Assembly (NCBI RefSeq): GCF_000284115.1
Contig: NC_017080.1
Coordinates: forward strand, 2,280,001 to 2,312,000
Length of the DNA: 32,000 bases
DNA from: Phycisphaera mikurensis NBRC 102666
GTDB lineage: Bacteria; Planctomycetota; Phycisphaerae; Phycisphaerales; Phycisphaeraceae
Direction of reading: 5' to 3'
The notes beneath the pieces are model-generated. The model did no database searches. It had not been told where the DNA came from and was given only the letters and a program-made list of their open reading frames with translations. Positions within the stretch are counted from its first letter, which is position 1; each line of letters begins with the position of its first letter. A program made the translations under genes and the position numbers. Positions 3,622 to 32,000 of the stretch are shown here, one piece after another.

Positions 3622-3777
3622 GAGGCTGTTTCAGAACCTGCTGGGCTTCGCCACCCGTGGCCGCCCGCTGCCCGCGTCGGGCTCCGAACGGGGGGACCGC
3701 CCCCCGCTCTCCCCCTCCTTGGCAGCGAACAGCCACGGGCGACCCGGGCGTGCAGCCGGTTCTGAAACAGCCTCTAA
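3619..3777. repeat. 155-bp imperfect palindrome with 18-bp perfect terminal inverted repeats, flanked by TAA/TAA (MITE-like element or composite bidirectional terminator)
   Basis: AGAGGCTGTTTCAGAACC (3621-3638) is the exact reverse complement of GGTTCTGAAACAGCCTCT (3758-3775). Interior arms also pair: TCGCC..CGTGGC at 3648-3662 with GCCACGGGCGA at 3732-3742. The centre is a hairpin C-G6 / ACCG / C6-G (3689-3706). TAA at 3619-3621 and TAA at 3775-3777 flank a 17-bp version of the inverted repeat. Confidence 0.6.
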
Positions 3778-7648: not shown

Positions 7649-8566
7649 ATGCAGAGCTACGTCAACGGAAGCTTCCACGATGCCGATGACCCGGCCCTGC
7701 GGGTGGAGGACGCGGGCTTCCAGCACGCGGTGGGCCTCTTCGAGACGTTCCAGGTGCACCGCGGCCGGCCCTTCCGTCTCGACGCGCACCTCGCCCGGCT
7801 GGCCGGCTCCGCCGCGACCCTCGGCCTCGCCGCCGACATGGCGGTCGCCCCGCTGGTCGCCGCGGTGGAGGAGACGATCCGGCACAACGGCATCGATCGG
7901 GCCCGCTGCCGGCTGACGGTGACGGCGGGCACGGTCTCGCTGCTGCGTGCGGACCCCCGGGGCGGGGGACCGGCCGAGGCGGTGGCGGTGAAGCAGACGG
8001 TGGCGATCGTTCCGCAGCCGCCGACGATCTGGGAGCCCTCGCTCTTCGAGGATGGCGTGGCGGTCACGATCCACGGGCCCGCCGCCAACCCCTTCGACGA
8101 CACGGCGGGCCACAAGACGCTGAACTACTGGCAGCGTCTGCGGTCGCTGCGGCGGGCCGCCGCGCAGGGCGCGGCCGAGGCCATCTGGCTGAACGTCAGC
8201 AACCACCTCGCGAGCGGCTGCGTCAGCAACCTGCTGCTCGTCAAAGACGGCGTCCTGCTGTCGCCGTTCGCCCGCGGCGAGGAGGAGCCCGGGGCGCTGC
8301 CGGCGCCGGTGCTCCCGGGCGTGACCCGGCAGCTGCTGCTCGAGGCCGCCGCAGACGCTGGTCTCGCCGCCCGCAAGCGGATGCTGACGATCGACGACCT
8401 TCTCGACGCGGACGAGGTGATGCTCACCAACTCCGGCTGGGGCGTTCTGCCCGTCGTCCGCGTCGAGAAGAAGCCGATCGGCGACGGCCGGGTCGGCCCC
8501 GCCACGCAACGGCTGCGCAAGGCCTGGTCGGACGCCGTCGCGGCGGAGACGGCGGAACCGGGCTGA
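7649..8566 (+). CDS. Class IV aminotransferase family protein (aminodeoxychorismate lyase / branched-chain or D-amino-acid aminotransferase-like)
   Basis: ATG at 7649 gives MQSYVNGSFHDADDPALRVEDAGFQHAVGLFETF. A candidate catalytic Lys sits in TAGHKTLNYW. The C-terminal DEVMLTNSGWGVLPVVRV matches the fold-type IV pattern. The subfamily cannot be assigned by eye. An alternative start is 7601. Confidence 0.75.
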   Translation: MQSYVNGSFHDADDPALRVEDAGFQHAVGLFETFQVHRGRPFRLDAHLARLAGSAATLGLAADMAVAPLVAAVEETIRHNGIDRARCRLTVTAGTVSLLRADPRGGGPAEAVAVKQTVAIVPQPPTIWEPSLFEDGVAVTIHGPAANPFDDTAGHKTLNYWQRLRSLRRAAAQGAAEAIWLNVSNHLASGCVSNLLLVKDGVLLSPFARGEEEPGALPAPVLPGVTRQLLLEAAADAGLAARKRMLTIDDLLDADEVMLTNSGWGVLPVVRVEKKPIGDGRVGPATQRLRKAWSDAVAAETAEPG

Positions 8567-8593
8567 CGCCGCTCCCCGTGCCGCCGGTTTCCA

Positions 8594-8667
8594 TACGCCC
8601 GGAGGGAATCGAACCCCCAACCTGCGGAGTAGAAATCCGCTGCTCTATCCGGTTGAGCTACGGGCGC
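8594..8667 (-). tRNA. tRNA-Arg (anticodon TCT)
   Basis: The reverse complement folds as a 74-nt cloverleaf. Acceptor GCGCCCG/CGGGCGT (G1-U72 wobble), D-arm GCTC-AACCGGATA-GAGC, anticodon arm GCGGA-TTTCTAC-TCCGC (TCT), T-arm GGGGG-TTCGATT-CCCTC, discriminator A. Confidence 0.9.
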
Positions 8668-8791
8668 TGCGCCGCGACAGGGTATGCGGAGCCGGAACGG
8701 GCCCGCGCGAACCTCCGGGAGAACCCGCGGACCGCGGACGCGACGGCCCTCCAACGACCGCAATCCGCGGCGAGAAAGGGGCTTAAGCCGG

Positions 8792-10978
8792 ATGCCGGCC
8801 GTGCCGATGCTCTCCGGCAGGGACCGCCGTGGGATCCCGACGCCCAAGCCCGTTCCGGAATCCGCCGCCTTGCCCTCCGCCTCCGCCGAGCCCGCCGAGC
8901 CGCTCCGCAGGGGTGAAGCCGCCCGCCGCCGCCGCGAGCGCTTCGAGCGAGCGTGGGCGCCGCTGGTGCGGGCGATCGACGCGGCGGGTCTCTACGACGC
9001 CGAGCACCCCACGGTCCGCGACCGCCTCGCCGAGGCCGCCGAGGCCCTGGGTCACGCCCTCGCGACGCTGCCGTGCACGCTGCTTGTCGAGCCCGCTGCG
9101 ATCGTGCCGGTGGCGGGAGGCGAGGCCGGCGTGGCGGCGACGGCCGAAGCGCGGCTGGCGGGGCTGCTGCACGGGCGTGACGCGGCGGCGATCCGGTTCA
9201 CGGCGCTCCCGGGGCCCGGGGACGTCCGCGCTCTCGCGGAGGGCGTGGCGGCGTGGCGGCCGGGCCGGCCGTGGTCCCAGACGCTCGGCCGCGTCGTCGA
9301 AGCCTCCGACGGGCGGGTCTCCGTCGAGCCGATGAACTTCGCCGGGCTCGCCGCGGGGTTCGGTCGCGGCCGAGGCGGACCGGCGGGATGGTCGACGCTC
9401 CTGGATTGCCTGCTCGGCGGCGGCGCGGCCGGCGACGCGGCCGCCGCCGGCGGCGGGTCCGCGGCGGTGCGGGACGCCGCCGAGGCCGTCGCCACCCGGA
9501 TGCGGGCCGATCCACAGGTCGGGGCGGAGCTGCTGCGTCGCCGGCTGGCGGAGGCGGGGGCGACGATGTCCGGGGCCGACGCCGTGGCCGACGCCGCGAC
9601 GGTGCAGCGGATGCAGGACTTCGCGACCGAGCTCGGCAAGCTGCTCGGACCCGACGCGGAGGCGTCGGACGCGGAGGCCGGCACGCCGACGATCCTCCGG
9701 CAGTCGCTGCTGATGTGCACGGCCCTCAGCGGCTTCTCGGCCGAGGACCCTCGAGCCAGCCACGGCGACGGCAGCTGGATCGAGGGCTTCCGCGACCTCT
9801 TCAAGCGGCAGGAGGACCCCGAGCACACGCCGCCGGCGTACATGCGGCGGCTCGAAGCGCTCGCGGCCCGCCAGGATGCCGAGCTGCGGCAGCGGACCCC
9901 GCGTGACGCCGCGGAAGCGGTGGGGGCGGTCGATCCCGCGGCGTTCCGCGCCGCCCACATCGAGTCGCACGCCTGCCGCATGGCGCTCGCGATGCTCGAG
10001 GACCTGCTCGACGGGCGGGCGGAGGGCGAGCAGGCGACCGGGGCGGGCCGGGCGGAGGAGTCGCTGCTCGCGGAGCAGGCCGCGGGCGTCTTCCCGGAGC
10101 TGCTCGCGCAGCGGGACGCCGTGCGGCTTCTGAGGTTGCTCGAGCTCTCGCAGCGGGACGGCGGCGGGAGCCTGCGTGCCGCCGTCGACGCCGGGCTGCG
10201 GAGCGCTACCGCCGGCGCGACCCTCGCCGCTTGGACCGCCGAGGGTGCCGAAGCGGGGCCGGTCCTTCGGCTGGCCCGCGCCGCCGGCCCGGAGACGCTG
10301 GCCGGCTTCATCGCCGCCGTCGCGGCGGAGGCGCCTTCGCCGCAGAGCCGATCCCGCATCGCGTTGCTGCATCGCGAGGAGCTGGAGGCCCTTCGGGTCC
10401 AGTGGCTGGCAAAGCACCCCGCCGGTGCCTGCCGCCTCGCGCAGATGTTGGCGCCGATGCCGGCCGCGGAGGCCGAAGCCCTGCTCGGCCCGGAGCTGGT
10501 GCAACCGGACCCGGCGCGCCGGCTGCGGGGCTTCCGGACGCTGCTGCGGGTGGCCGACGCGGTCGACGAGGCGTTCGTCCTGGGCCTGCTCGATCATCCC
10601 GACGCGGAGGTGATCCGCCTCGGGACCCGCTGGCTCCTCGCCGACGGCTCCACCGGCGGCCGGCGGCTGGGCCTGCTGCTCGGCTGGCTCCGGGCTCGGG
10701 GCCGGCAACGCGGCGAGGCCCACGGGGTGGTGGTCCTCGAGCTCGCCGCCGACGCCTCCGGGCACGGGCTGCTGCACGAGCTGCTGCGTCCCGCCGCCGA
10801 CGCGCCGCGGGCCAACGCCCGCGCGGCGGTGGCCGCCGCGCGCGTGCTGCTGGGGCGGCCGGGCCTGCCGCCGGCGCTCCACGCCGCCGCGGCCGCGGCC
10901 GCCCGCCCCGGCTCGCTCGCCTCCCTGCGGTCCCTGGTGCTCGGCCGCCTCCCGCACCGTCGTCCCTCCGCGGCCTGA
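8792..10978 (+). CDS. Large (about 728 aa) Ala/Leu/Arg-rich protein of unknown function; N-terminal module shared with the downstream HD-GYP protein, HEAT/ARM-like C-terminus
   Basis: Frame of ORF 8684..10978. Third codon positions are overwhelmingly G/C and the composition is normal, unlike the antisense 735-aa ORF. ATG at 8792 (alternative 8807). It contains GLYDAEHPTVRD, paralleling GFYGSEHPVVRD of the next gene. The C-terminus has HEAT-like LLDHPDAEVIRLGTRWLL. The stop lies 3 nt before the next ATG. Confidence 0.65.
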   Translation: MPAVPMLSGRDRRGIPTPKPVPESAALPSASAEPAEPLRRGEAARRRRERFERAWAPLVRAIDAAGLYDAEHPTVRDRLAEAAEALGHALATLPCTLLVEPAAIVPVAGGEAGVAATAEARLAGLLHGRDAAAIRFTALPGPGDVRALAEGVAAWRPGRPWSQTLGRVVEASDGRVSVEPMNFAGLAAGFGRGRGGPAGWSTLLDCLLGGGAAGDAAAAGGGSAAVRDAAEAVATRMRADPQVGAELLRRRLAEAGATMSGADAVADAATVQRMQDFATELGKLLGPDAEASDAEAGTPTILRQSLLMCTALSGFSAEDPRASHGDGSWIEGFRDLFKRQEDPEHTPPAYMRRLEALAARQDAELRQRTPRDAAEAVGAVDPAAFRAAHIESHACRMALAMLEDLLDGRAEGEQATGAGRAEESLLAEQAAGVFPELLAQRDAVRLLRLLELSQRDGGGSLRAAVDAGLRSATAGATLAAWTAEGAEAGPVLRLARAAGPETLAGFIAAVAAEAPSPQSRSRIALLHREELEALRVQWLAKHPAGACRLAQMLAPMPAAEAEALLGPELVQPDPARRLRGFRTLLRVADAVDEAFVLGLLDHPDAEVIRLGTRWLLADGSTGGRRLGLLLGWLRARGRQRGEAHGVVVLELAADASGHGLLHELLRPAADAPRANARAAVAAARVLLGRPGLPPALHAAAAAAARPGSLASLRSLVLGRLPHRRPSAA

Positions 10979-10981
10979 ACC

Positions 10982-12226
10982 ATGACGCAACCCCTCTCAC
11001 CCCGACGCCGCGCCGCCGACGCCCCCGAGAAACCCCGCCCCCTGTCGGCATCGGCCGCGTCGAGCCTCGACGCGGCGATGCGCGAGGTGCAGTCCGCTCT
11101 GGAGGGCCGCGGCTTCTACGGCAGCGAGCACCCGGTGGTCCGCGATGCGCAGGAGCGGGCGTTGCCGCGCCTCCGGGAGGTGCTCGAGGAGGAACCCTCG
11201 GTGATGGTCGCCCGCCTCGGCGACCGCGTGGTGGCGCAGGGGGAGCGGCTCGCCTCCGAAGGGATCCTGCGACGCGGCCTCTTCGCGCGGATGGAGGCGG
11301 CCGGCTTCGAAACGCTCACCTTCGACCGCGGCTTCGGCGGCGCGGAACTCGCGGCGGTCCTCGACGGGCTCCACGCCGGAGAGGCCGCGGCCGGGTCCGA
11401 CGCGTCGGGGGTGCGGCTGGGCCACCTCCTCGGCGGGGGCGCGGAGCGAGCCGAAGCGTCGGAGGCCGAGCCCAAGGCCGCGGGCCCAGCGGCGGCCGAT
11501 CCCGCTGCGCTGATGCGTCCGGTCGGCCGCGCTTTCCAGTCGATCCTGCGGGGTCGCCCGGTGGAGCGCGGGGGGCTGCACCGGCTCGTCGAGCAGCTGG
11601 GGCAGGCGGCGCGGGTGGGCGCCGGCGCGCTGCTGCCGATGCGCGACCTCAAGCGGCACGACGACTACACCTTCGCGCACGCGATCAACGTCGGGATCCT
11701 CGCGTGCGGGCTCGCGGGGGCGGCGGGGCTCGACGAGGGAACGGTCCGCGACGTCACGATCGCGGGGATGCTGCACGACGCGGGGAAGGAACGCGTGCCC
11801 ACGAGCCTGCTCAACAAGCCCGGCCGCCTCACCGGCGAGGAGAAGTCGATCGTCGACGGGCACCCGGTGGCCGGTGCGAAGCTGCTCATGGCCGCGGAGG
11901 GCGTCCCGCGCCTGGCCGCCATCGTCGCTTGGGAGCACCACATGAACGCCGACGGGAGCGGGTACCCCCGCCAGCCCGCCGGGCACCGGCGGCACCCGGC
12001 GAGCCAGATCGTGCAGCTGGCGGACGTCTTCGACGCGCTGCGGACCCGGCGTCCGTACCGCGCCGCGCTGCCGCTTGCGGAGGTACACGCCGTGCTCCTC
12101 GCCGGCCGCGGCGGCCCGTACGATGCGGCCCTCGTCGATCTCTTCCTCCGGGAGGTCGTCGGCGAGACGCTCCCCGCGGCGGCGCCGGCCGCCGAGCCGG
12201 CCGCGGCGCCGCGGCGGGCCGCCTGA
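10982..12226 (+). CDS. HD-GYP domain phosphohydrolase (putative c-di-GMP phosphodiesterase)
   Basis: 414-aa ORF. HD motif in AGMLHDAGKERVP and GYP motif in WEHHMNADGSGYPRQ. It also has FAHAINVG and ADVFDALRTRRPYR, typical of HD-GYP domains. The N-terminal roughly 200 aa is a non-catalytic module. Confidence 0.85.
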   Translation: MTQPLSPRRRAADAPEKPRPLSASAASSLDAAMREVQSALEGRGFYGSEHPVVRDAQERALPRLREVLEEEPSVMVARLGDRVVAQGERLASEGILRRGLFARMEAAGFETLTFDRGFGGAELAAVLDGLHAGEAAAGSDASGVRLGHLLGGGAERAEASEAEPKAAGPAAADPAALMRPVGRAFQSILRGRPVERGGLHRLVEQLGQAARVGAGALLPMRDLKRHDDYTFAHAINVGILACGLAGAAGLDEGTVRDVTIAGMLHDAGKERVPTSLLNKPGRLTGEEKSIVDGHPVAGAKLLMAAEGVPRLAAIVAWEHHMNADGSGYPRQPAGHRRHPASQIVQLADVFDALRTRRPYRAALPLAEVHAVLLAGRGGPYDAALVDLFLREVVGETLPAAAPAAEPAAAPRRAA

Positions 12227-12244
12227 CGCCGCCTCCTCTCCCGC

Positions 12245-13093
12245 GTGAAGCCGACCGAACCCGCGAGCGACGACGACGGCAGCGGGGATCTGCACGCCCT
12301 GCTCGGCGACGTCGCCGCGGGGAGGCTGAGCCCCGCCGCCGCCGCCGCCCGGCTTGGTCGACCGGCTCCGGCCGAGCCCCCCGAGCGGCTCGGCTTCGCC
12401 ACCGTCGACCACGACCGCGGGCGCCGCTGCGGACTCCCCGAGGTGGTCTACGCGGAGCACAAAACCCCCGAGGAGGTGATCGCGATCGTCGACGCGCTGC
12501 GGGAGCGCAGCGGCTACGCGCTGGCCACCCGCGTGAAGGAGGCCGACCGGCCGGCGCTGCGGGCGGCCTGGTCCGGCGTGCCGGTCCAGGAAGCGGCCGG
12601 CGCCGGGGCGTTTCTGGTGGGCTCGCCGCCGCCGTTGGTGGGGCTGCCGCCGGTTCCGGTGGTGGCGGCCGGCACCAGCGACCTGCCGGTGGCGCGGGAG
12701 GCGGAGCTGACGCTCCGCGCGATGGGCCAGTCCGCCCACCGGATCACCGACGTCGGCGTGGCGGGGCTCCACCGGCTGCTCGAGCGGCTCCCGGAGCTGG
12801 CCGCCGGCCGCGTCGTCGTGGTCATCGCCGGGATGGAGGGGGCGTTGCCGAGCGTGGTGGCGGGGCTGCTGCCCGCCCCGGTCGTCGCCGTGCCCACCTC
12901 CGTCGGCTACGGAGCGGCTTTCGGCGGCGTCGCCGCGCTGCTGGGCATGCTCAACAGCTGCGGCAGCGGCGTGACCGTCGTCAACATCGACAACGGCTTC
13001 GGGGCTGCGCTTTCGGCCGGGCGGATCAACGCCCTCGGCGGGCCGGCCGAGCCGGACGCCGCCGCGGCGGTCAGCCCTGCATCTGGCCGATGA
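12245..13093 (+). CDS. larB: LarB-like protein (PurE-related; nickel-pincer cofactor biosynthesis carboxylase/hydrolase family, COG1691-type)
   Basis: GTG start at 12245. Motifs present: VPVVAAGTSDLPVAREAELTLRAMG, DVGVAGLHRL, VIAGMEGALPSVVAGL, VPTSVGYGAAFGGVAALLGMLNSCGSGVTVVNIDNGFGAA. These match my memory of the LarB/NCAIR-mutase-related family. Confidence 0.75.
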   Translation: MKPTEPASDDDGSGDLHALLGDVAAGRLSPAAAAARLGRPAPAEPPERLGFATVDHDRGRRCGLPEVVYAEHKTPEEVIAIVDALRERSGYALATRVKEADRPALRAAWSGVPVQEAAGAGAFLVGSPPPLVGLPPVPVVAAGTSDLPVAREAELTLRAMGQSAHRITDVGVAGLHRLLERLPELAAGRVVVVIAGMEGALPSVVAGLLPAPVVAVPTSVGYGAAFGGVAALLGMLNSCGSGVTVVNIDNGFGAALSAGRINALGGPAEPDAAAAVSPASGR

Positions 13094-14670: not shown

Positions 14671-15491
14671 CGTCCCAGGAGCCGCCCGAAGAAGCCCGGC
14701 GGCTCGCGGTACACCCGCGGCTCGTAAGGCCGGGCGTCCGCGAAGAGCGCGTCGCCGCGTTCGGCCGACAGCTCGCCCCAGGCCTCGGGCGCGGTGCCGA
14801 GCGAGCGGCCGGTGAGCGTCTCCAGCGAGCCCGCGGCGGCCGCGACGACGGCGTAGTCGGCGTCGACGAGAGCGGCCCGCAGCGCCTCGAAGGCGTCCCG
14901 ACGCGGGTACCTCGCCAGCGCCTCGGCCGCGGCCACGCGGGTGCCCGCGTCCTCGTCGTTGAGGAGCCGGTCCAGCAGCGGAGCCACGGCGGCCTCGCCG
15001 GGCAGGTGCCGCAGCGCCTTGGCGGCCTCCCAGCGGAGGAAGGCGTCGTCGGACCGCAGCTGCTCGGCCACCCGCGCCGCGTCGCCCGCTGCGCCGTGCC
15101 GCGCGAGCGCCGACACGGCGGCGGCACGCACGGAGGCGTCGGGATCCGTGAGCAGCAGGCGGTAGAGCGGCAGCATCGCCGGCCGGTCCCCGTAGCGGGA
15201 GGCCGCCACCTCCCGCAGCGAGGCCTGCCGCCGGTCGGCGTCCGTCCGGTCGAAGGCCCCCCGGATCGCCTCGGCGGGGTCCTCGCCGAGGGAGGCGAGC
15301 AGCTGCGCGAGCAGGGCGGGCTCCGCGGTCCGGGCCTCGGTCCGGTCCCGCGCGGCGGCCGCGGCGGCCGCGTCACGCTTCTCCGCCCCGCCGCCGGCGC
15401 AGCCCGAGCCGAGCACCAGGCACGCCACCAGCGTCCCGATCCCTCGCACCGGGCGGGCGCTGCGTTCGCCGGTGGGTCCGCGGTGCTGCAT
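14667..15491 (-). CDS. HEAT-repeat lipoprotein
   Basis: ATG at 15491 gives MQHRGPTGERSARPVRGIGTLVACLVLGSGC (signal plus a lipobox-like Cys). HEAT-type units repeat: LLTDPDASVRAAAVSALARHG, LRSDDAFLRWEAAKALRHL, LLNDEDAGTRVAAAEALARY, LVDADYAVVAAAAGSL. Confidence 0.65.
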   Translation of the reverse strand: MQHRGPTGERSARPVRGIGTLVACLVLGSGCAGGGAEKRDAAAAAAARDRTEARTAEPALLAQLLASLGEDPAEAIRGAFDRTDADRRQASLREVAASRYGDRPAMLPLYRLLLTDPDASVRAAAVSALARHGAAGDAARVAEQLRSDDAFLRWEAAKALRHLPGEAAVAPLLDRLLNDEDAGTRVAAAEALARYPRRDAFEALRAALVDADYAVVAAAAGSLETLTGRSLGTAPEAWGELSAERGDALFADARPYEPRVYREPPGFFGRLLGR

Positions 15492-15648
15492 CGCGCGGGA
15501 GCCTACCGCTCCGCGGGCCCGGGCCCGGCGTGTCCGGGTCTGCTCCAACGCCGCCCCGCCCTCATGGGATGCTCACGCTCCGGCTTTAGCGTGGCGGCCC
15601 GTCCGGCAGCGAAGCCGGAGACCCCCCACCCGCCACGAGATCTTCCTC

Positions 15649-16641
15649 ATGACGACCTTCCCCCGCTCCCCGCTCACCCGCGTCCTCCCCGGCCTCGCCC
15701 TCGCGGCGGGCCTCTGCGTCCCCGCCGCCGCGCAGACCCGCGGCACGGTGGAGATCGACGGCTCCAGCACCGTCGGCCCGATCACCTCGGCCGTGCAGCG
15801 CGAGTTCCTCAACGAGTACCCCGGCGTGGACGTCACCGTGAACGTCTCGGGCACGGGCGGCGGCTTCAAGCGTTTCACCCGCGGCGAGACCGACATCTCC
15901 AACGCCTCCCGCCCGATCAAGGGCAAGGAGATCAAGAACGCCGAGGCGAACGGGATCGATTTCGTCGAGGTTCCCGTCGCCTACGACGGCCTCTCGATCG
16001 TCGTCAACAAGCAGAACGACTGGGCGACGGAGCTCACCGTCGAGGACCTCCAGAAGATCTTCCTCGCCGAGCACCAGTCCGACGTCAAGAGCTGGAAGGA
16101 CGTCGACGCGTCGTACCCCGACGTGCCGATCTCCATGTACATCCCCGGCACCGACTCGGGCACCTTCGACTACTTCAAGGAGGTCGTCGCGGGCAAGGAG
16201 GGCCAGATCCGCTCCGACGTCTCGCCCTCCGAGGACGACAACCAGCTCGTCCGCGGCATCGAGGGCAACCGCGGCGGCATCGGCTTCTTCGGCTCCAGCT
16301 ACTACTTCGAGAACCAGGACAAGCTCCGCGCCCTGAACATCAAGAACAAGGACGGGGACTTCGTCGGGCCGACGCCCGAGACGATCGAGGACGGGACCTA
16401 CAACCCCTTCTCGCGCCCGCTGTTCATCTACGTGAAGGCCGACTCCATGGACAAGCCCGCCGTGCGGGAGTTCGTGAGCTTCTACCTCGACGTCGCCCCC
16501 GACGTCGCCGAGGCCGTCGGCTACGTCCGCCTGCCGGCCGGCGTGTACGACAACGCCCGGTCCCGCATCGCCAACCGCGTCACCGGTTCGGTGATGTCCG
16601 ACAACCACGAGTCGATCGTGAAGGCGTACACCGCCGAGTGA
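15649..16641 (+). CDS. pstS: Phosphate ABC transporter substrate-binding protein
   Basis: ATG at 15649 inside ORF 15472..16641. It has a signal peptide (LPGLALAAGLCVPAAAQ), then IDGSSTVGPIT...SGTGGGFKRF...ISNASRPIK, which are PstS-family motifs. It is the first gene of the pstSCAB order. Confidence 0.9.
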   Translation: MTTFPRSPLTRVLPGLALAAGLCVPAAAQTRGTVEIDGSSTVGPITSAVQREFLNEYPGVDVTVNVSGTGGGFKRFTRGETDISNASRPIKGKEIKNAEANGIDFVEVPVAYDGLSIVVNKQNDWATELTVEDLQKIFLAEHQSDVKSWKDVDASYPDVPISMYIPGTDSGTFDYFKEVVAGKEGQIRSDVSPSEDDNQLVRGIEGNRGGIGFFGSSYYFENQDKLRALNIKNKDGDFVGPTPETIEDGTYNPFSRPLFIYVKADSMDKPAVREFVSFYLDVAPDVAEAVGYVRLPAGVYDNARSRIANRVTGSVMSDNHESIVKAYTAE

Positions 16642-16661
16642 CCCTCCGGGCACCGCTCTCC

Positions 16662-16691
16662 CCGCGGACCGGCCCACCGGCCGGGCCGCGG
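16662..16691 (+). promoter_or_regulatory. Intercistronic GC hairpin between pstS and pstC (possible attenuator / mRNA-stabilising stem-loop)
   Basis: CCGCGGACCGGCC-CACC-GGCCGGGCCGCGG forms a 13-position stem with one A/G mismatch and a 4-nt loop. It starts 21 nt after the pstS stop and ends 33 nt before the pstC ATG. Confidence 0.45.
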
Positions 16692-16723
16692 CTTCGCACC
16701 CCGGGCTCCCCGCCGCACCGCCG

Positions 16724-17779
16724 ATGACCACCTTCCCTTCCGGAACCCAGCAGATGCCCGCCGCCTCGCCGCCGACCGGCGAGGACCGCCGGGCACGCTC
16801 CGCGGGCATCCGCAACGCGCGGGAAGGCTTCGTCTTCGCGCTGCTGCTGGGCTGCGGCCTCTTCAGCGTCGGCACGATGCTGATGATCCTGTGGATCCTG
16901 CTCAGCAACACGGTCACCTTCTTCGGCCACCCGATGCAGGACGTCTCCGGGCAGGTGAGCACCGTGACGCCCCGCGAGTTCCTCACCGGCGGCGAGTGGA
17001 ACCCGCTGCTCGGCGCCGAGAAGCACTTTGGGATGTGGCCGCTGGTGGTGGGCACGCTTCAGGTGGCGGTGGTGGCGATGGTGTTCGCGCTGCCGCTGGG
17101 GCTGATGGTCGCGATCTGGCTCAGCGAGTACGCGGCGCCGAAGGTGCGGGCGGTGGTCAAGCCCGTGCTCGAGGTCATCGCCGGCGTGCCGACGGTGGTC
17201 TTCGGCTTCTTCGCGATCACCTTCATCACCCCGACGCTGCGGCTGGCCTGGCTGCCCGGCGGCCGCGACAACGCGTACTACAACTGGTTCGACTTCGGCA
17301 CCTACAACGTGCTCGCCGCGGGCCTCGCCGTGGGCATCATGTGCATCCCGATCGTCACGAGCCTCTCCGAGGACGCCCTGCGGGCCGTGCCCCGGTCGCT
17401 CCGCGAGGGCAGCTACGGGCTGGGCGCCTCGCGCTTCGAGACGTCGGTGAAGGTGGTGCTGCCGGCGGCGCTCTCGGGCGTGATCGCCGCCTTCCTGCTC
17501 GCGGTGGCCCGTGCCGTGGGAGAGACGATGATCGTCGCGCTCGCCGCCGGGTCGCTCCCGCCGAACCTCGCCGACCGCCCCGGCGACGTCTTCGACCTGA
17601 CGCAGGACACGCAGACGATGACCGGCTACATCGTGCAGATCTACCTGGGCGACGTCGCCCACGGCGGCGTCGAGTACCTGTCGGTCTACGCGATCGCCTT
17701 CACCCTCTTCGTGATCACGCTGTTGCTCACGATCGGCGGCGGCATCATCCGCACCCGCTTCCGGCAAGCGTACGAGTGA
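16724..17779 (+). CDS. pstC: Phosphate ABC transporter permease PstC
   Basis: 351-aa polytopic membrane protein in the second position of the operon. The permease loop SEDALRAVPRSLREGSYGLGASRFET (EAA-type motif) matches the PstC pattern. Confidence 0.85.
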   Translation: MTTFPSGTQQMPAASPPTGEDRRARSAGIRNAREGFVFALLLGCGLFSVGTMLMILWILLSNTVTFFGHPMQDVSGQVSTVTPREFLTGGEWNPLLGAEKHFGMWPLVVGTLQVAVVAMVFALPLGLMVAIWLSEYAAPKVRAVVKPVLEVIAGVPTVVFGFFAITFITPTLRLAWLPGGRDNAYYNWFDFGTYNVLAAGLAVGIMCIPIVTSLSEDALRAVPRSLREGSYGLGASRFETSVKVVLPAALSGVIAAFLLAVARAVGETMIVALAAGSLPPNLADRPGDVFDLTQDTQTMTGYIVQIYLGDVAHGGVEYLSVYAIAFTLFVITLLLTIGGGIIRTRFRQAYE

Positions 17780-17819
17780 ACCCGCGACCCCGCCGCTTCG
17801 GCTCTTCCGGAAACCCGCC

Positions 17820-19391
17820 ATGACGACGCTTTCCTCCTCCGCCGCGGCGTCCGCCCGCGACGCCTCCGCCCCGCCGCCGCCCGCGGGCGCCGGCGAACGG
17901 ACGCGCTACCCGGTCCGCAGCCGCCGCTCCCGCGTCGCGGTCGACCGGGTCTTCCAGATCGTCTGCATCGCCGCGGCCGTGCTGGCGATCTCGCTGCTGG
18001 TCGTGCTGATCGTCGCGATCACCTTCCGCGGCGCCCCGCGGCTCTTCGGGCACTTCGGCGAGTTCCTCACCGGCTTCCACAGCTCCAATCCGCTGGAGGC
18101 CGGGATCGCCGCGGCCATCGTGGGCACGCTGTGGCTGCTGCTGGTGTGCGCCATCTCGGCCATCCCCCTGGGCGTCGGCACCGCCGTGCTGCTGGAGGAG
18201 TACCGCCCCAAGAACCGCTTCCTCCGCTGGCTGCACGGGCTCGTGCAGCTGAACATCACCAACCTCGCCGGCGTGCCGTCAATCGTCTACGGCATCCTCG
18301 GCCTCACGGTGTTCGCCGGCTTCATCGCCTTCAACGACCGCATCGGCGACCCGCTGGTGACGGTCGGCCAGAGCTGGTTCCGCACCTACGAGAGCGTCGG
18401 CGGGGAATACTTCTACGTGCCGGTGGCGACGCGGGCCGAGGCCGAGGACGGCACGCCCGCCGCGCCCGGCATGGCTTTCCTCGATGCGCCGCGGACCGGA
18501 GCCGCCTCGGCCGAGGTCGACGTGCGGTCCGCGGCCGAGGTCGCCGGCGTCGAGCGTGCCGTCGACGAGGCGATCCGCGGGCTGGAGCGGAAGATCAAGA
18601 CCGAGCTGCGGGCGGCGCAGGAGGGCGGCCGCGGGCCCGCCGCGATCGACGACGCGAAGGCGTCCGCCATGGCGGCCGCCGTCTTCGACGGCGTGACGAT
18701 GAGGGCGGACCTCGGCGAGCTTTCCGGCATCGCCACCGCCTCCTTCCGGGCGATGGACGGCCAGGAGAGCATGACCCTGATGCGGTCGCGCCGCGAGCTC
18801 GCGGCCGAGCTGACCGCCGCGGAGATCAAGGCCAACGGCGTGGGCAACGTCGTCGCCGCCGGCACCGCCTCCACCCCGATCGACCACAAGGCCGCGTACT
18901 ACATGCAGCTGCCCTTCGGCCGCGGCCTGCTCGCCGGCGGGCTGACGCTGATGCTGGTGATCCTGCCGATCATCATCGTCGCCAGCCAGGAGGCGATCCG
19001 CTCGGTCCCGCCGTCCATGCGCGCCGGCTGCCTCGCGCTGGGCGGCACGAAGTGGCAGGCGATCCAGAAAGTCGTCTTGCCCTCGGCCATCCCGGGCATC
19101 TGCACCGGCAGCATCCTCGCGATGAGCCGCGCCATCGGCGAGGCCGCCCCGCTGCTGATGATCGGTGCCGTCTTTCTCACCTTCGTCCCCGGCCCCAAGC
19201 CCTTCTTCGGCGACGGCAACCTGACCGACAGCTTCACCGCCCTGCCGCTGCAGATCTTCTCGTGGACGAGCATGCCCGCCGACGGCTTCCGCGACGCCGC
19301 CGCGGCGGGCATCATCGTGCTGCTGGCAATCCTCCTGGTCTTCAACCTCGCCGCCATCCTCATCCGCCAGAAGTACACCGCCAAGGATTGA
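17820..19391 (+). CDS. pstA: Phosphate ABC transporter permease PstA (long form with about 190-aa soluble insertion)
   Basis: 523 aa. The C-terminal half has [39 protein letters not shown] (EAA motif, PstA-like). A hydrophilic Ala/Glu-rich segment (about nt 18333-18915) separates transmembrane blocks. Confidence 0.8.
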
Positions 19392-19440
19392 TCGCCCGGA
19401 GCCCGCACGCCCCGCGCCCGGCCCACGAGGAGCCTTCCCG

Positions 19441-20328
19441 ATGCCCACGACCATGACCCAACCCACCGAGCCCTCCGCCTCGCCAGAAGCCGGCGCCCCG
19501 CCGCGGGTCGCACCGCCCTCGCCCACCGCCGCCCTCGGCGGCGACGTGCAGGAAAGCGTCGACCTCGACGACGCCCCCACGCTGCTCGAGCTCCGCGGGT
19601 TTTCCTGCTGGTACGGAGACTTCCAGGCCTGCCATGACATCAGCCTGGCGATCCCCGCGAACAAGGTCACGGCCTTCATCGGGCCCTCCGGCTGCGGCAA
19701 GTCGACGCTGCTGCGATGGATCAACCGCATGAACGACCTCGTGCCCGGCGCCCGCGCCGAGGGGCAGGTCAGCCTGCACGGCGAGAACCTGCTGGACCGC
19801 AGCGTCGACGTCGTTTCGCTCCGCCGGCGCATCGGGATGGTCTTCCAGCGGCCCAACCCCTTCTCCAAGAGCATCTACGACAACGTGGCCTTCGGGCCGC
19901 GGCTGCACTACAAGCTCAGCCGATCGCAGACCGACGACCTCGTCGAGGCGTCGCTGCGCGGCTCGGCCCTCTGGGACGAGGTGAAGGACCGGCTGAAGCA
20001 GTCGGCGCTGGGCCTCTCCGGCGGCCAGCAGCAGCGGCTGTGCATCGCCCGGGCGATCGCCGCCGAGCCGGAGATCCTGCTGATGGACGAGCCCTGCTCG
20101 GCGCTGGACCCCAAGAGCACCGTCGCCATCGAGGACCTGATGGCCGAGCTCAAGAAGAAGTACACGATCGCGATCGTGACGCACAACATGCAGCAGGCGG
20201 CCCGCGCCAGCGACCAGACCGCGTTCCTCTTCGAGGGCAAGCTCATCGAGTGCGGCGCCACCCGCCGGGTCTTCACCAAGCCCAACAGCGAGCAGACGGA
20301 GAATTACATCACCGGCCGGTTCGGCTGA
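19441..20328 (+). CDS. pstB: Phosphate ABC transporter ATP-binding protein
   Basis: Walker [10 protein letters not shown], signature [14 protein letters not shown], Walker [14 protein letters not shown]-loop VTHNM. The C-terminal ENYITGRFG is typical of PstB. It has an N-terminal extension of about 35 aa. Confidence 0.92.
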
Positions 20329-27273: not shown

Positions 27274-27328
27274 CCGCTCACCCGGTGTACGATCCCGCGG
27301 CATGCGACGCCGCGGGATCCGTGAGCGG
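27274..27328 (+). terminator. Composite GC hairpin 20 nt downstream of hflX (candidate terminator/attenuator ahead of the PilM-like cluster)
   Basis: Inner stem GATCCCGCGG (27291-27300) pairs with CCGCGGGATC (27310-27319), a 10-bp perfect stem with a 9-nt loop. Outer stem CCGCTCAC (27274-27281) pairs with GTGAGCGG (27321-27328). There is a 9-nt asymmetric internal loop and no U-tract. Confidence 0.4.
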
Positions 27329-27421
27329 ACACCTGCCGACCAAGCGCCGCCCTCGTGCTCCTCCCCTCTCCGGGGCTCGCCGTGATCCGCGGCGCCCGCT
27401 GAACCCGAGACACCCACCTTT

Positions 27422-29767
27422 ATGGCAAGAAGCAGCAGCAGCTGGGGAATCGACGTCGGACGCGAAGCGGTCAAGGCCGTGAAGCTGGTCCAGCGTGGAT
27501 CCGAGGTGGAGGTCGAGGCCTTCGAAGTCCTTCCTTACGACGAGGTGCTGACGGCACCGGACGTCGACACGGACCAGGCCATCCAGCTCCAGCTCGACGC
27601 CCTGCTCCAGAAGCACGAGCTCAAGAGAAGCCGCGTCGTCGCGTCGGTGCCGGGCAACACCGCCTTCGCCCGCTTCGCCAACCTGCCGCCGGTGGACCCC
27701 AAGACGATCCCCAAGATCGTCCGCTTCGAGGCCGAGCAGCAGATCCCCTTCCCGATCGACGAGGTCGAGTGGGATTACCAGGTCTTCCAGGACGCCGACA
27801 CGCCCGACGTGAAGGTGGGCATCTTCGCCATCACCAAAGAGCGGGTGATGCAGTTCCTCTCCAACTACCGCGCGGTCGACGTCCGGGTGGACGCCCTCAC
27901 GCTCTCGCCGGTCGCGGTCTTCAACGCCTTCGCGTACGACACCGCCAACGACGAGGACGCGAGCGGATCCGGCCGCGTCTACCTCGACATCGGCACGCTG
28001 TCGACCGACGTCATCATCATCGAGGACGGCGACATCTGGCTGCGGACGGTGCCCATCGGCGGCAACCACTTCACCGAAGCGCTCGTCAAGCAGTTCAAGA
28101 TCAGCTTCTCGAAAGCGGAGAAGCTCAAGCGTGAGGCCGCGACCAGCAAGTACGCCAAGCAGATCTTCCAGGCGATGCGCTCCGTCTTCGCGGACCTCGT
28201 GCAGGAAGTCCAGCGCTCCATCGGCTTCTACCAATCGATGAACCGCGAGTCGGAGCTGAGCGAGGTGGTCGGGCTCGGGTCCACCTTCAAGCTCCCGGGG
28301 CTCCAGAAGTTCCTGAAGCAGCAGCTGCAGATGGACGTCAAGAAGCCGGGGGCCTGGGAGCGGGCGGTGGTGGACGGCAAGCGGGAGTCGGAGCTGGTCG
28401 GGCAGGTGGGCGTGCTCACGACGGCCTACGGCCTCGCGTTGCAGGGCCTGGGCGTGGAGCGTGTCTCCGCCAACATCCTGCCCGCCCACGTGCTGCAGCA
28501 GCGGATGTGGCAGGCGAAGCAGCCTTGGATTGCCGCGGCGGCGGCCTGCGTCGCCGTGGGGGCGGGGCTCTACGGCGCCCGCTACTTCGTCGACCAGGCC
28601 GCGCTCGAAGAGGCTTCGACGCAGATCGCCCGCGAGGTGCAGCCGGTGCTCGCGCGGGCCAATCAGTACCGAAGCGAGGCCGAGGAGGCGAAGACGCAGG
28701 ACCCGCGCCAGGGCATCGAGAACCTGCGCCAGGTGGTGCCCAACCGCGACGTGTACCCGCTCCTGCTCGCCGACCTCGACGCCGCCATCGGCTCGGTCGG
28801 CACGCAGGAGGCGGTCCTCTCGGGTGATCCCGCCCGCATCGCCACGATCCCGCGTCGCCAGCGGCGCTTGCTCTCCATCGAGTCGGTGGTCGACACCTAC
28901 ATCCCGGCGCCCGCCACCGATGCCGAGGAGGCCGCACCGGTGGATCCCGGCCAAGGCGGATTCGGCGGCGGGTTTGACGGCGGCTTCGGCGGGGGCCCGG
29001 GCGGGTTCGGCGGCGGGCCGGAAGGCTTTGGCGGGGGCTTCGACGGCGGCTTCGGGGGCGGCGGTGGCTTCGGCGGGGGCCGGGCGGCCGGTGGCGGCGC
29101 TCCGGCGACCGGAGCCCCCACGAGCCTCGCGGAGATGATCTCGCAAGGCCAGAGCAAGGACTTCTTCGCGGGCGAGGTCGGCCCCCAGCTCGACCTGGTC
29201 ATCAAGGGCACGACCCCCTTCGAGACGCCGTCGAGTCTCCTCAGCGAGACGATTATCCAGTGGCTCCGCGACAACGCGGACCGACCGGACCGCCCCTACA
29301 TCATCGAGGTGGGCGAGCAACCCATCGCCTTCCTCCAGCAGGTGGGCGATGGCGGGGCGAGCCGCAGCCCCTCCGGCGGCATGGGGATGGGGATGGGGAT
29401 GGGCGCGGGCGGCGGCCGCGGGGGGGCGGCCGACTTCGGCAGGAGCGGGATGGGCATGCCCGGCGGCGACTTCGGCGGAGGCTTCGGCGGAGGGGGCTTC
29501 GGCGGGGGAATGGGCGGGGGCTCCGCGATGGGAGCGGCGGACCTGGCGGCCCTGCTGCCCCGATCGCCGCTCGCGGACGAAGACGCTTCCACGGACTTCC
29601 GCTTCGAGCTGCGCTTCAAGCTCCAGCTCCGCGATCCGCTCGCGCAGCCGGACGAGGAAGCGGGCGGGGCCGGCGAGCCGGAGGGCGTGGGCGATGATGC
29701 CTTCGGGCAGGACGCGGACGCGTCCGTGCGGGCGGACGGGCAGCTGACCGAAGAGGTGACCTCATGA
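27422..29767 (+). CDS. PilM/FtsA-type actin-fold protein fused to a TM helix and a PilN-like extracytoplasmic region with two Gly-rich low-complexity inserts (781 aa)
   Basis: N-terminal roughly 350 aa carries WGIDVGREAVKAVKL, VRFEAEQQIPFPIDEVEWDYQV, YLDIGTLSTDVIII, RTVPIGGNHFTEAL and GLGSTFKLPGLQKFL, which is the PilM pattern. A single hydrophobic helix follows (WIAAAAACVAVGAGLYGARYF). The C-terminal roughly 390 aa contains the GGF and GM repeats. Confidence 0.8.
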   Translation: MARSSSSWGIDVGREAVKAVKLVQRGSEVEVEAFEVLPYDEVLTAPDVDTDQAIQLQLDALLQKHELKRSRVVASVPGNTAFARFANLPPVDPKTIPKIVRFEAEQQIPFPIDEVEWDYQVFQDADTPDVKVGIFAITKERVMQFLSNYRAVDVRVDALTLSPVAVFNAFAYDTANDEDASGSGRVYLDIGTLSTDVIIIEDGDIWLRTVPIGGNHFTEALVKQFKISFSKAEKLKREAATSKYAKQIFQAMRSVFADLVQEVQRSIGFYQSMNRESELSEVVGLGSTFKLPGLQKFLKQQLQMDVKKPGAWERAVVDGKRESELVGQVGVLTTAYGLALQGLGVERVSANILPAHVLQQRMWQAKQPWIAAAAACVAVGAGLYGARYFVDQAALEEASTQIAREVQPVLARANQYRSEAEEAKTQDPRQGIENLRQVVPNRDVYPLLLADLDAAIGSVGTQEAVLSGDPARIATIPRRQRRLLSIESVVDTYIPAPATDAEEAAPVDPGQGGFGGGFDGGFGGGPGGFGGGPEGFGGGFDGGFGGGGGFGGGRAAGGGAPATGAPTSLAEMISQGQSKDFFAGEVGPQLDLVIKGTTPFETPSSLLSETIIQWLRDNADRPDRPYIIEVGEQPIAFLQQVGDGGASRSPSGGMGMGMGMGAGGGRGGAADFGRSGMGMPGGDFGGGFGGGGFGGGMGGGSAMGAADLAALLPRSPLADEDASTDFRFELRFKLQLRDPLAQPDEEAGGAGEPEGVGDDAFGQDADASVRADGQLTEEVTS
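28949..29100 (+). repeat. Coding low-complexity repeat 1: (GGF/GGGF) Gly-Phe-rich tract
   Basis: Translates to GQGGFGGGFDGGFGGGPGGFGGGPEGFGGGFDGGFGGGGGFGGGRAAGGG. The DNA is a degenerate tandem array of ggcggcttcggcggg-like units. Confidence 0.9.
29375..29540 (+). repeat. Coding low-complexity repeat 2: Gly-Met / Gly-Phe-rich tract
   Basis: Translates to GGMGMGMGMGAGGGRGGAADFGRSGMGMPGGDFGGGFGGGGFGGGMGGGSAMG. It includes (atgggg)x3 hexanucleotide repeats. Confidence 0.9.
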
Positions 29768-31221
29768 AGAGCGTGCTGATCTGGCTCAAGAACAACCCGA
29801 TCACCGTGGCCTCCGGCCTCGTGATCCTCCTCGCCCTGGGCTTCGCCGCCTGGACGTGGTCGAGCTTCGGCGCCCTGCGGGGCGATCTCGAGGCCACGGC
29901 GAGGGAGAAGGGCAAGCTCGAAAACTTCGGAAACAACACCGCGGAGCTGCCCGCGGAGGAGATCGACGCCCAGCCGCTCACCGTCGAGGGCGTCACGTAC
30001 AACCCGCCGACCGTCGATCGGATGAGGCGGATCTTCGGCGACCTCAACTCGCAGACGGAGCTGACCGCGGCGACCTTCGCGGTCTTCAACGAGCGGGGCC
30101 ACCAGCAGCTGGTCGAGGGCTTCTTCCCCTCGGCCGCGGGCGACGCCTTCAACTACAAGAACCGGTACCGCGACGCGATCCAGACCCTGCTGGCGGGCCC
30201 GGGCCCCGCGGCGGGCTTCGCGGAACAAAACGGCGTCCTGCTCCCCACGCTCAAGGCGGGGCTTCCCCCTCAGGCGCAGACGCTGCAGACGCGGCTGAAC
30301 CGCATCGCCGAGGAGGGTGCCCGCGCCTTCGGGGACCGGCTGACCGAAGACCAGATCCGGCGGCTCGAGGACGAGCAGCGGGTGGAGTTGCTGGAGGCCC
30401 TAACCGAGCGTGCCCGCGCGTTGGACGTCTACGCGATCAACGACATCGGCCCCACGACGGCGCTGAATCCCGAGTACCCGCTGCCCGTGCTCCGCTACGT
30501 CTACGAGGGCTCCCAGCCGGAGCCGCGGCAGATGTGGGAGAGCCAGATGCAGACGTGGATCCTCCAGGACCTCATCGCATCGATCGGCTTGGCCAACGGC
30601 GTGCCGGTCCCGGGTGTGGCCCCGCTGCCCGCCGCGGCACGCGGCGAAGGGGGCAGCGCCCAGGGCGTCCTCGGAGCCGTCGTGAAGCGACTGATCAGCG
30701 CGGACGTCCTGCCGGGCTACGTCGGCATCCAGAGCTCCGGCGGCGTCGGCCAGCTCGACAGCGACACGAACACCGGCCGCAACGCCTCCGCGGGCTTGGC
30801 CGCCGGTGCCGGGCCCGTGGAGGGCCTGGCGTCCGATGGTGCCGGCATCCCGGTGATCAAACCGAACTACTTCGTCAGCCCGACCGGGCGTACCAGCAAC
30901 CCGGTCTTCGACGTCCGCCACACCCGCCTGCGGGTGCACGCCGATTACACCCGCCTCCCGCTGCTCTTCGAGGCGATGGCGAAGATCAACTTCATCTCCG
31001 TCGTCGACATGAAGCTCGCCTCGATCGACGAATACGACTACTCCACCAGCGGCCGCCTCGGCGGGCCCTTCGTCTACGGCGTCGGGGAGATCGTCGACGT
31101 GGAGATGATCGTCGAGAGCCTCTGGTTCAGGAGCTGGACCGTGCCGCTGATGCCTGACAGCGTCAAGACCACGCTGGGCATCGCCACGGTCGAGCCCGCC
31201 GTCGCCGACGACACCTTCTAG
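29764..31221 (+). CDS. Bitopic membrane protein of unknown function (485 aa; loosely PilO-like organisation)
   Basis: Its ATG overlaps the upstream TGA (ATGA at 29764-29767). One N-terminal helix (ITVASGLVILLALGFAAWTW) is followed by a charged helical segment and a C-terminal beta-rich region (VRHTRLRVHADYTRLPLLFEAMAKINFISVVDMKL). No family confidently recognised. Confidence 0.65.
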   Translation: MKSVLIWLKNNPITVASGLVILLALGFAAWTWSSFGALRGDLEATAREKGKLENFGNNTAELPAEEIDAQPLTVEGVTYNPPTVDRMRRIFGDLNSQTELTAATFAVFNERGHQQLVEGFFPSAAGDAFNYKNRYRDAIQTLLAGPGPAAGFAEQNGVLLPTLKAGLPPQAQTLQTRLNRIAEEGARAFGDRLTEDQIRRLEDEQRVELLEALTERARALDVYAINDIGPTTALNPEYPLPVLRYVYEGSQPEPRQMWESQMQTWILQDLIASIGLANGVPVPGVAPLPAAARGEGGSAQGVLGAVVKRLISADVLPGYVGIQSSGGVGQLDSDTNTGRNASAGLAAGAGPVEGLASDGAGIPVIKPNYFVSPTGRTSNPVFDVRHTRLRVHADYTRLPLLFEAMAKINFISVVDMKLASIDEYDYSTSGRLGGPFVYGVGEIVDVEMIVESLWFRSWTVPLMPDSVKTTLGIATVEPAVADDTF

Positions 31222-31300
31222 ACGCGGGCCGGCCCCCACGCCCGCCCCCGAGCACCCCCGGCCTCGCGCCGCTTCCCGCCATCCTCCCTCTGGACCCTCC

Positions 31301-32000
31301 ATGGCCGCACGCCAAGCCGGCTTCTTCGTGAAGCACACGGAAAAGATCATCCTCGCGGTCGCCGCGGCCTTCGCCCTCCTCCTGGTCGCCATCGCGTGGC
31401 TCGGCGTGTTCGGGAGCCCCGCCAGCACGCGGATCAACGGCGTGGTGGTGACCCCCGAGAACGTGCAGGACATCGTCAACGCCGAGGCGGACCGCCTCCG
31501 ATCCAAGCTCGACGAGACCGAGCCCGGCGTGCCCGAGGTGCAGATCCCCAACTACGCCGAGGACTTCTCCAGCCGCATCGCCGCGCCGATCCTCGCGGGC
31601 GATCCGCGGTTGGTTAGCGGAGGCTTGGACCGAGCGGGCCTCACCGCGGCCACCTTCGTGCTGCAGCAGAACAGCTTCCCGGCCTACTTCCTGCCCACCC
31701 CGCCGGTCCCGACGGACGTGACGCTCAAGGCGGGCACCGCGGTGCTCGCCGACCCCGCGAGCGAGGGCGACGCCGCGGCGCGGGAGCGGCTGGTGGAGCT
31801 GCGGAACCGGCTGGACATCCGCGAGCCGGGCGACTTCCAGTTCGTCTCGGTGATGGGGCGCTTCCCGTTGCAGAGCTGGAGCGAGCGGCTGGAGGGGCAG
31901 GACCCCGAGGGTTCGCGGCAGCCGATCCCCGAGAACGTCTGGCGGCCGCGGCTGGGCCTGGCGGCGGTGTACCTCCTCCGCCAGCGGCAGGACGCCCGCA
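31301..32000 (+). CDS. Bitopic membrane protein of unknown function (partial, runs off the window)
   Basis: Not in the supplied ORF track because it has no stop. I translated from the ATG at 31301 through 31999 and found no stop in 233 codons. The product begins MAARQAGFFVKHTEKIILAVAAAFALLLVAIAWLGVF (one TM helix) followed by a soluble domain. Third positions are G/C-rich. Confidence 0.6.
   Translation, partial: MAARQAGFFVKHTEKIILAVAAAFALLLVAIAWLGVFGSPASTRINGVVVTPENVQDIVNAEADRLRSKLDETEPGVPEVQIPNYAEDFSSRIAAPILAGDPRLVSGGLDRAGLTAATFVLQQNSFPAYFLPTPPVPTDVTLKAGTAVLADPASEGDAAARERLVELRNRLDIREPGDFQFVSVMGRFPLQSWSERLEGQDPEGSRQPIPENVWRPRLGLAAVYLLRQRQDAR

Follow-up and report, generated by a model that had tools for sequence, protein, structure and literature searches.

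A conserved gene trio built around a PilM-transmembrane fusion protein in Phycisphaera mikurensis, a candidate envelope scaffold related to the Akkermansia MUL2 core

We analysed a 32,000-nucleotide (nt) stretch of DNA from Phycisphaera mikurensis (the window), together with a further 10 kb downstream of it taken from the contig in GCA_014207395.1, and concentrated on three co-directional genes at the end of the window, here called genes 1, 2 and 3 (Table 1). The window has a GC content of about 72%, and long open reading frames (ORFs) are found in every frame on both strands. The frames of genes 1-3 have a GC content of 0.92-0.96 at third codon positions (GC3) and of 0.46-0.48 at second positions (GC2), which is the coding signature of the P. 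mikurensis genome. An earlier reading of the same DNA (the original prediction) had described these genes as a stand-alone PilM-fusion cluster, possibly from a planctomycete. The organism is indeed a planctomycete, the three ORFs are present where that reading had placed them, and the start codon of gene 2 lies within the stop codon of gene 1 as it had indicated (ATGA, 29764-29767). Gene 3 begins with the ATG at 31301 and continues beyond the window, also as predicted, to a full length of 672 amino acids (aa) in the downstream sequence, while the spacer that separates it from gene 2 is 79 nt long instead of the proposed 80.

Gene 1 encodes a PilM actin-fold domain and, joined to it by one transmembrane (TM) helix, a periplasmic region; GspL and Amuc_1101 are laid out alike. 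The N-terminal part (aa 9-341) matches Pfam PilM_2 (PF11104; E = 3.3e-33, 115.5 bits against a cut-off of 27), the protein passes the TIGR01175 pilM model (157.8 bits, cut-off 133), and the solved PilM structures 2ych, 3jc8 and 5eou are all recovered as matches (E = 2e-24 for 2ych to 1.8e-17). The best-scoring family, nevertheless, is NF045709, the Amuc_1101 family of 'PilM-like pilus complex protein' (216.1 bits, E = 1.1e-63), with aa 1-456 of gene 1 aligned to profile positions 1-461 of 608. This match spans the TM helix and some 70 periplasmic residues; since it continues past the helix, the PilM-TM-periplasm fusion is common to gene 1 and Amuc_1101. Much weaker matches were obtained to Pfam FtsA (E = 1.9e-12), to TIGR01174 ftsA (36.1 bits, below the cut-off of 175.85), to TIGR01709 GspL (aa 51-415; 17.8 bits, E = 0.0014, below the cut-off of 65) and to Pfam T2SSL (E = 0.053). 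The actin-fold motifs GIDVG (aa 9-13), DIGTLST (aa 189-195) and GLGS (aa 284-287) are more than 95% conserved in 118 gene 1 homologues, over which the PilM domain has a mean identity of 0.67; across the best 120 of 4491 gene 1 matches the identity of this domain is 56-87%. The source databases label these homologues PilM. In the precomputed Pfam labels no family is given for the P. mikurensis gene itself (locus L001, 7659-10004), and the label table thus has gaps.

Following the TM helix are 395 residues predicted to be periplasmic, in good agreement with the original prediction of a PilM-type N-terminal domain, one TM helix and about 390 aa outside the cytoplasm, and gene 1 is therefore not a soluble stand-alone PilM. 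The periplasmic part consists of conserved blocks split by two inserts of 49-59% Gly. Such low-complexity Gly/Phe runs, also with Met and Asp, occur in the periplasmic parts of both gene 1 and gene 3 (e.g. GGFGGGFDGGFGGG; G 47-59%, F 11-14%), and a 30-aa window with at least 50% Gly is present in 43 of the 118 gene 1 homologues. They may serve as flexible spacers or form a cohesive mesh. The original prediction had compared short segments between these inserts to PilN and PilO. Both the segments and the inserts are there, but the comparison found no support at the sequence level: a profile of the C-terminal part (16 sequences, Gly runs stripped) has no match in the PDB at E ≤ 10 and none to the Pfam PilN or PilO families, and hhalign comparisons of this part with the families of genes 2 and 3, and of those two with each other, showed no relation other than a TM/coiled-coil match (E = 8e-4, probability 25%).

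Gene 2 belongs to a large family that has no Pfam or NCBIfam model. A profile built from the 14 relatives found by a word-indexed search and run against 1.84 billion representatives recovers 1950 clusters (defined at 50% identity) at E ≤ 1e-3, of which 762 reach E ≤ 1e-30. The protein has one N-terminal TM helix, and its AlphaFold2 model (predicted local distance difference test, pLDDT, 65.6; predicted template modelling score, pTM, 0.67) shows long helices after it and, at the C-terminus, a beta-alpha-beta-beta core interrupted by a disordered insert. When this model was compared with the PDB by Foldseek, the top 14 matches were all either PilO (2rjz, 5uvr, 3jc8_O) or Amuc_1100 (6lad, 6laf, 6kny). 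A scan of 43 diverse family members against NCBIfam points the same way, as the Amuc_1100 family (NF038287) is the only one matched by more than one member (5/43). The best of these matches (34.9 bits, E = 1.1e-8) is below the cut-off of 180; in it, aa 6-102 of the relative P0175 align with profile positions 2-97 and thereby cover the motif preceding the TM helix, the helix itself and the first helix after it. Pfam PilO is matched neither by gene 2 nor by 42 relatives, and the gene 2 family profile gives only chance or low-complexity matches among PDB sequences. For the direct comparison we used an Amuc_1100 sequence that is identical to PDB 6lad and 6kny over residues 31-317 and as a whole scores 300 bits on NF038287; phmmer with this single sequence found nothing. 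Because the fold, the bridging hidden Markov model (HMM) matches and the position beside an Amuc_1101-like gene agree, we suggest that gene 2 is a distant protein of the Amuc_1100/PilO type, though none of the three lines is strong alone.

Gene 3 likewise has one N-terminal TM helix and represents, according to its model, a well-folded family with no recognisable relatives. We collected 17 relatives, one of them from Algisphaera agarilytica, and neither the protein alone nor the family has any Pfam or NCBIfam match. In the model (pLDDT 73.7) the TM helix is followed by two folded domains with pLDDT > 90, one alpha/beta (aa 125-330) and one all-beta (aa 483-644), which are separated by two Gly-rich disordered stretches around a helix. 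The Gly-rich runs cover aa 349-392 and aa 424-478 (L001 12582-12713 and 12807-12971). Foldseek of this model against the PDB and the viral BFVD yielded noise only, and so did the family profile against PDB sequences, where the matches were of low complexity. The original prediction had thus rightly assigned one N-terminal TM helix to each of genes 2 and 3. Its statement that neither belongs to a recognised family holds for gene 3 and, as regards Pfam and NCBIfam, also for gene 2, which however can now be connected distantly to PilO and Amuc_1100. The cytoplasmic N-terminal tails of both proteins, with the motif GFFxKHxEK in gene 3, are conserved like the folded cores and more so than the TM helices; in gene 2 the conservation is 0.60 for the tail and 0.37 for the helix.

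The three genes are inherited as one unit. For the genome scan, one genome per species was searched with a narrower gene 2 alignment (A1), as the broad alignment (A3) was too diverse; it returned 45 loci, nearly all from Phycisphaerae, Phycisphaeraceae, Algisphaera or Mucisphaera metagenome-assembled genomes. With five further contigs and P. mikurensis itself this makes 51 loci, six of which carry Pfam labels. The order gene 1-gene 2-gene 3 on one strand is found by tblastn in every one of the 45 loci where the contig allows, and the same trio with varied flanks is present on the five further Pfam-labelled contigs. By contrast, hflX and the genes for the amine oxidase and the glycosyltransferase, which neighbour the trio in P. 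mikurensis, do not adjoin it in any of the 45 other loci by tblastn. When the flanking ORFs were clustered, no gene outside the trio reached more than 14 loci; pdxA and CNNM/CorC, mostly on the other strand, were the most frequent. The overlap of 4 nt between genes 1 and 2 was detected in 28 of 28 loci by script and in L049 and L051 by gene calls (30/30 altogether), with a GGAG-like motif upstream of it in the scored loci. As the overlap is kept in all 30, the translational coupling of the two genes, which the original prediction had proposed from the P. mikurensis sequence, is a conserved feature. None of the Pfam families for pilN, pilO, pilP and pilQ occurs within 10 kb in the six labelled loci, and the clustered loci have no conserved neighbours.

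Some flanking genes deserve separate mention. In L051, a gene for a 347-aa protein that weakly matches N_methyl (prepilin-type) is found some 850 nt upstream of the trio and divergent from it (8104-9147, minus strand), and it adjoins a gene for an 886-aa protein without Pfam match; it is the sole pilin-like hint in any locus. Genes for glycosyltransferases and polysaccharide synthesis flank the trio in three of the six Pfam-labelled loci (Table 1). A linkage with glycosyltransferases was considered and set aside, as the genes are not orthologous between loci.

Among the known systems the nearest is MUL2 of Akkermansia muciniphila. MUL2 comprises Amuc_1098-1102, a locus of pilus-like character without which mucin is not acquired, with Amuc_1101 (MUL2B) as the PilM protein, Amuc_1100 as a protein of PilO/PilN-like structure, Amuc_1102 resembling an archaeal type IV pilin and Amuc_1098 as the secretin; it has been reported within Verrucomicrobiota only. 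The trio is like MUL2 in several respects. Gene 1 has the Amuc_1101 family as its best HMM, with the match running through the TM helix; the next gene is bitopic, its model matches the Amuc_1100 crystal structures and its relatives match the Amuc_1100 family; a further bitopic gene follows; and both organisms belong to the Planctomycetes-Verrucomicrobia-Chlamydiae (PVC) group. Unlike in MUL2, the trio proteins are much longer and carry Gly-rich inserts, and there is neither an Amuc_1102 pilin-like gene upstream nor an Amuc_1098 secretin downstream of the trio within 10 kb in the 51 loci.

On these grounds we interpret the three genes as one operon for an inner-membrane-anchored, periplasm-spanning scaffold that resembles the 'alignment platform' of type IV pili and type II secretion systems and belongs to a PVC-specific lineage of which the Akkermansia MUL2 core (Amuc_1101 and Amuc_1100) is the studied example. 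We would give this reading a probability of roughly 60%. By analogy with PilM-N-O-P and GspL-M-C, the periplasmic parts of genes 1 and 2 would pair as PilN-PilO or GspL-GspM do, and the short conserved cytoplasmic tails of genes 2 and 3 would dock on the PilM domain. The Gly-rich spacers might allow a wide or variable periplasm to be bridged, and the C-terminal beta-domain of gene 3 could touch an outer component, in the place of PilP or GspC. Such a complex would position or gate a trans-envelope fibre or channel, the ATPase, filament subunits and outer-membrane pore of which would be encoded elsewhere.

Several results weigh against this interpretation. Gene 1 is far under the Amuc_1101 equivalog cut-off (216 vs 650 bits), as the relatives of gene 2 are for that of Amuc_1100 (at most 35 vs 180), and gene 2 itself has no match in Pfam or NCBIfam. 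The Foldseek matches of gene 2 are weak (E = 0.01-0.3, with probabilities up to 1.0) and come from a model of moderate quality, while the gene 2 profile aligns with the single Amuc_1100 sequence at the N-terminus only (E = 0.022). The periplasmic part of gene 1 has no resemblance to PilN or GspL by sequence, and gene 3 matches neither PilP nor the homology region (HR) domain of GspC by its model, nor any HMM. Moreover, no secretin, pilin-like gene or ATPase is linked to the trio in any locus, unlike in Akkermansia. The original prediction of a stand-alone, uncharacterised machine is borne out in part: the unit is self-contained and conserved in 45 other genomes with varying flanks, but it is a relative of a locus already described.

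A diverged but ordinary type IVa alignment complex is the alternative that fits next best, and we regard it as possible though clearly less probable. Gene 1 would then be a PilM-PilN fusion, gene 2 a PilO and gene 3 a PilP, with pilB, pilC, pilQ and the pilins elsewhere in a genome of scattered operons. The PilM domain scores above the TIGR01175 cut-off and has solved PilM structures among its matches, the gene 2 core matches PilO by fold, and the succession of an actin-like protein and bitopic periplasmic proteins mirrors pilM-N-O-P as known from Myxococcus (3jc8), Thermus (2ych) and Pseudomonas (2rjz); the PilM label given to the homologues by the source databases agrees with this as well. 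However, gene 1 scores higher with the Amuc_1101 family than with pilM, and its PilM domain, rather than being a partner for the peptide of a separate PilN, is joined to a TM helix and a periplasmic region within one protein. Pfam PilN has no match in the C-terminal part of gene 1 (16 sequences), in gene 2 and its 42 relatives or in gene 3, and none of the three families matches PilO or PilP. Gene 3 is also unlike PilP in its model, and pilQ is never adjacent in the 51 loci. The original prediction had reserved the ordinary pilus operon for the case of strong PilO/PilP matches in genes 2 and 3 with pilQ and pilins immediately downstream; no such matches were obtained, and neither pilQ nor pilins were seen in the 10 kb downstream. 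Type II secretion offers a comparable picture. The layout of gene 1 is that of GspL, to which it has weak matches (TIGR01709, T2SSL), and the bitopic form of genes 2 and 3 recalls GspM and GspC. Unlike in the GspL-GspM-GspC system, the phosphate and adenosine motifs of the actin fold are kept in gene 1, all scores of the trio are under the cut-offs, and no gspD, gspE, gspF or gspG is near.

A more specific proposal, which we consider doubtful, is that the trio is the planctomycetal counterpart of MUL2. Its proteins would then form the inner-membrane core of an apparatus spread across the PVC group, which draws macromolecules such as polysaccharides into an enlarged periplasm and here has no adjacent secretin or pilin. 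Gene 3 and the Gly/Phe-rich spacers would in that case be lineage-specific and span a variable periplasm. Fibre-mediated uptake of macromolecules into the periplasm has been described for Planctomycetes, and its mechanism is still unknown.

A role in division or morphogenesis seems improbable to us. The original prediction had speculated that in a planctomycete a membrane-anchored PilM/FtsA-like protein need not be part of a pilus. Taken further, an actin-fold protein anchored in the membrane would, with its partners, direct binary fission without FtsZ in Phycisphaerae. Planctomycetes are without ftsZ, and most of them also without ftsA. Gene 1 has the same ASKHA/actin fold as FtsA and a Pfam FtsA match, its PilM domain is unusually conserved over the top 120 matches, and the locus resembles a housekeeping unit in that each locus has a single module, the flanks vary and hflX is adjacent in P. 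mikurensis. The ftsA equivalog score, on the other hand, reaches only 36 of the 176 bits required, the protein is anchored by a genuine TM helix with a 395-aa periplasmic part and not by an amphipathic helix, and most of the protein mass is outside the cytoplasm. No FtsZ partner exists in the phylum, no dcw or mur genes are found in the window or the flanks, and the closest family comes from an Akkermansia locus tied to mucin acquisition and not to division. The support for a role in division is circumstantial only. Finally, chance adjacency or spurious ORFs, many of which arise on both strands at high GC, are refuted by the synteny (order and 4-nt overlap kept in at least 45 genomes) and by the hundreds to thousands of homologues per protein, with coding-type GC3 in the called frames.

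Table 1. Features of the three-gene unit and of the polysaccharide genes flanking it. Positions are those of the window unless a locus is named; L001 is the P. mikurensis locus.
Feature	Position	Strand	Evidence or content
Gene 1, 781 aa: PilM domain, one TM helix, periplasmic region (PilM-fusion, Amuc_1101-like)	27422..29767	+	ORF; PilM_2; TIGR01175; Amuc_1101_fam; PDB 2ych
Gene 1, cytoplasmic PilM actin-fold domain, aa 1-345	27422..28456	+	HMM and PDB matches; nucleotide-binding-type motifs intact
Gene 1, single TM helix, aa 369-386	28526..28579	+	Uncharged hydrophobic stretch; flanking KQPW motif conserved
Gene 1, Gly/Phe-rich low-complexity insert 1, aa 505-560 (G 59%, F 14%)	28934..29101	+	Composition; columns mostly gaps in homologues
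Gene 1, Gly/Met/Phe-rich low-complexity insert 2, aa 640-706 (G 49%)	29339..29539	+	Composition
Translational coupling site: GAGG 29753-29756 and ATGA start/stop overlap 29764-29767	29753..29767	+	Sequence
Gene 2, 485 aa: bitopic, suggested distant PilO/Amuc_1100-type	29764..31221	+	ORF; 1950-cluster family; AlphaFold2 model; Foldseek; relatives' Amuc_1100_fam matches
Gene 2, conserved cytoplasmic N-tail (aa 1-13, MKxxLxWIKxNPI) and TM helix (aa 14-34)	29764..29865	+	W7, K9, N11, P12 invariant
Gene 2, C-terminal beta-alpha-beta-beta core, aa 373-470, PilO-like	30880..31173	+	Modelled strands and helix aa 382-455; 79-column matches to 2rjz, 5uvr, 3jc8_O; conservation 0.57
Gene 3, first 233 of 672 aa, rest beyond window: bitopic, two folded periplasmic domains (predicted)	31301..32000	+	ORF; family alignment; model
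Trio-flanking polysaccharide genes	L001 13967-21458		GT2-PMT_2, GT2, flippase, pyruvyl transferase
Trio-flanking polysaccharide genes	L048 2296-5457		GT87, GT2
Trio-flanking polysaccharide genes	L049 2522-9746		GT_STM0557_N, GT4, ABC2

The surroundings of the trio in P. mikurensis consist of housekeeping or unrelated genes. The 27 kb of the window before gene 1 encode an alcohol dehydrogenase, aminotransferases, a release factor, ribosomal protein L31, an HD_5 protein, an AIRC-like protein, DUF2959, a methyltransferase, a HEAT-repeat protein, pstSCAB, a PilZ-domain protein, ilvC, RNase HII and, directly upstream of gene 1, hflX; pilus parts are absent from this region, as the original prediction had stated. 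Gene 3 is followed by a gap of 411 nt and then by genes for an amine oxidase, a GT2-PMT_2 glycosyltransferase, another GT2, a polysaccharide flippase and a pyruvyl transferase, and no secretin, pilin or ATPase was found in the 10 kb downstream of the window. A scan for promoters and terminators around the operon revealed nothing useful. The spacer between the hflX stop and gene 1 contains a strong GC-rich hairpin (27274-27329; an 11-bp perfect stem inside an 8-bp outer stem, no T-run), which may be the hflX terminator and would in that case leave the trio with its own promoter. The whole spacer folds no better than shuffled sequences (z = -1.1).

Three further observations concern the upstream region. 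The PilZ-domain protein (135 aa, E = 3.2e-7; 3774-4181, minus strand) is a possible receptor of cyclic di-GMP, lies 23 kb upstream of the trio and has no evident link to it. Three closely spaced co-directional genes at 8684-13093 (plus strand) encode a 764-aa Arg/Pro-rich protein without Pfam match, the HD_5 protein (HD-GYP-type) and the AIRC-like protein. The phosphate-type ATP-binding cassette (ABC) transporter operon at 15472-20328 (plus strand) is composed of PBP_like_2, two BPD_transp_1 permeases and ABC_tran, and its second permease is unusually long (523 aa).

Amuc_1100 and its locus have been studied heavily in Akkermansia for their effects on the host and for mucin uptake, while we found no description of the trio module in Planctomycetes in the literature. 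That Phycisphaerae have a distant, strictly conserved relative suggests that the PilM-fusion core may date far back in the PVC group and that it can occur without a secretin and a pilin gene linked to it. Two protein families without Pfam or NCBIfam models are defined here, namely that of gene 2, which is large (1950 clusters), and that of gene 3. The trio would be of high interest if it is the core of a macromolecule uptake system, or if it works without pilus or secretion partners; should the reading as a MUL2 counterpart be true, it would provide the first genetic handle on fibre-mediated uptake in Planctomycetes. As a conserved membrane-anchored complex with an actin-fold component, it is a candidate for a part in macromolecule uptake or in division without FtsZ in these bacteria.

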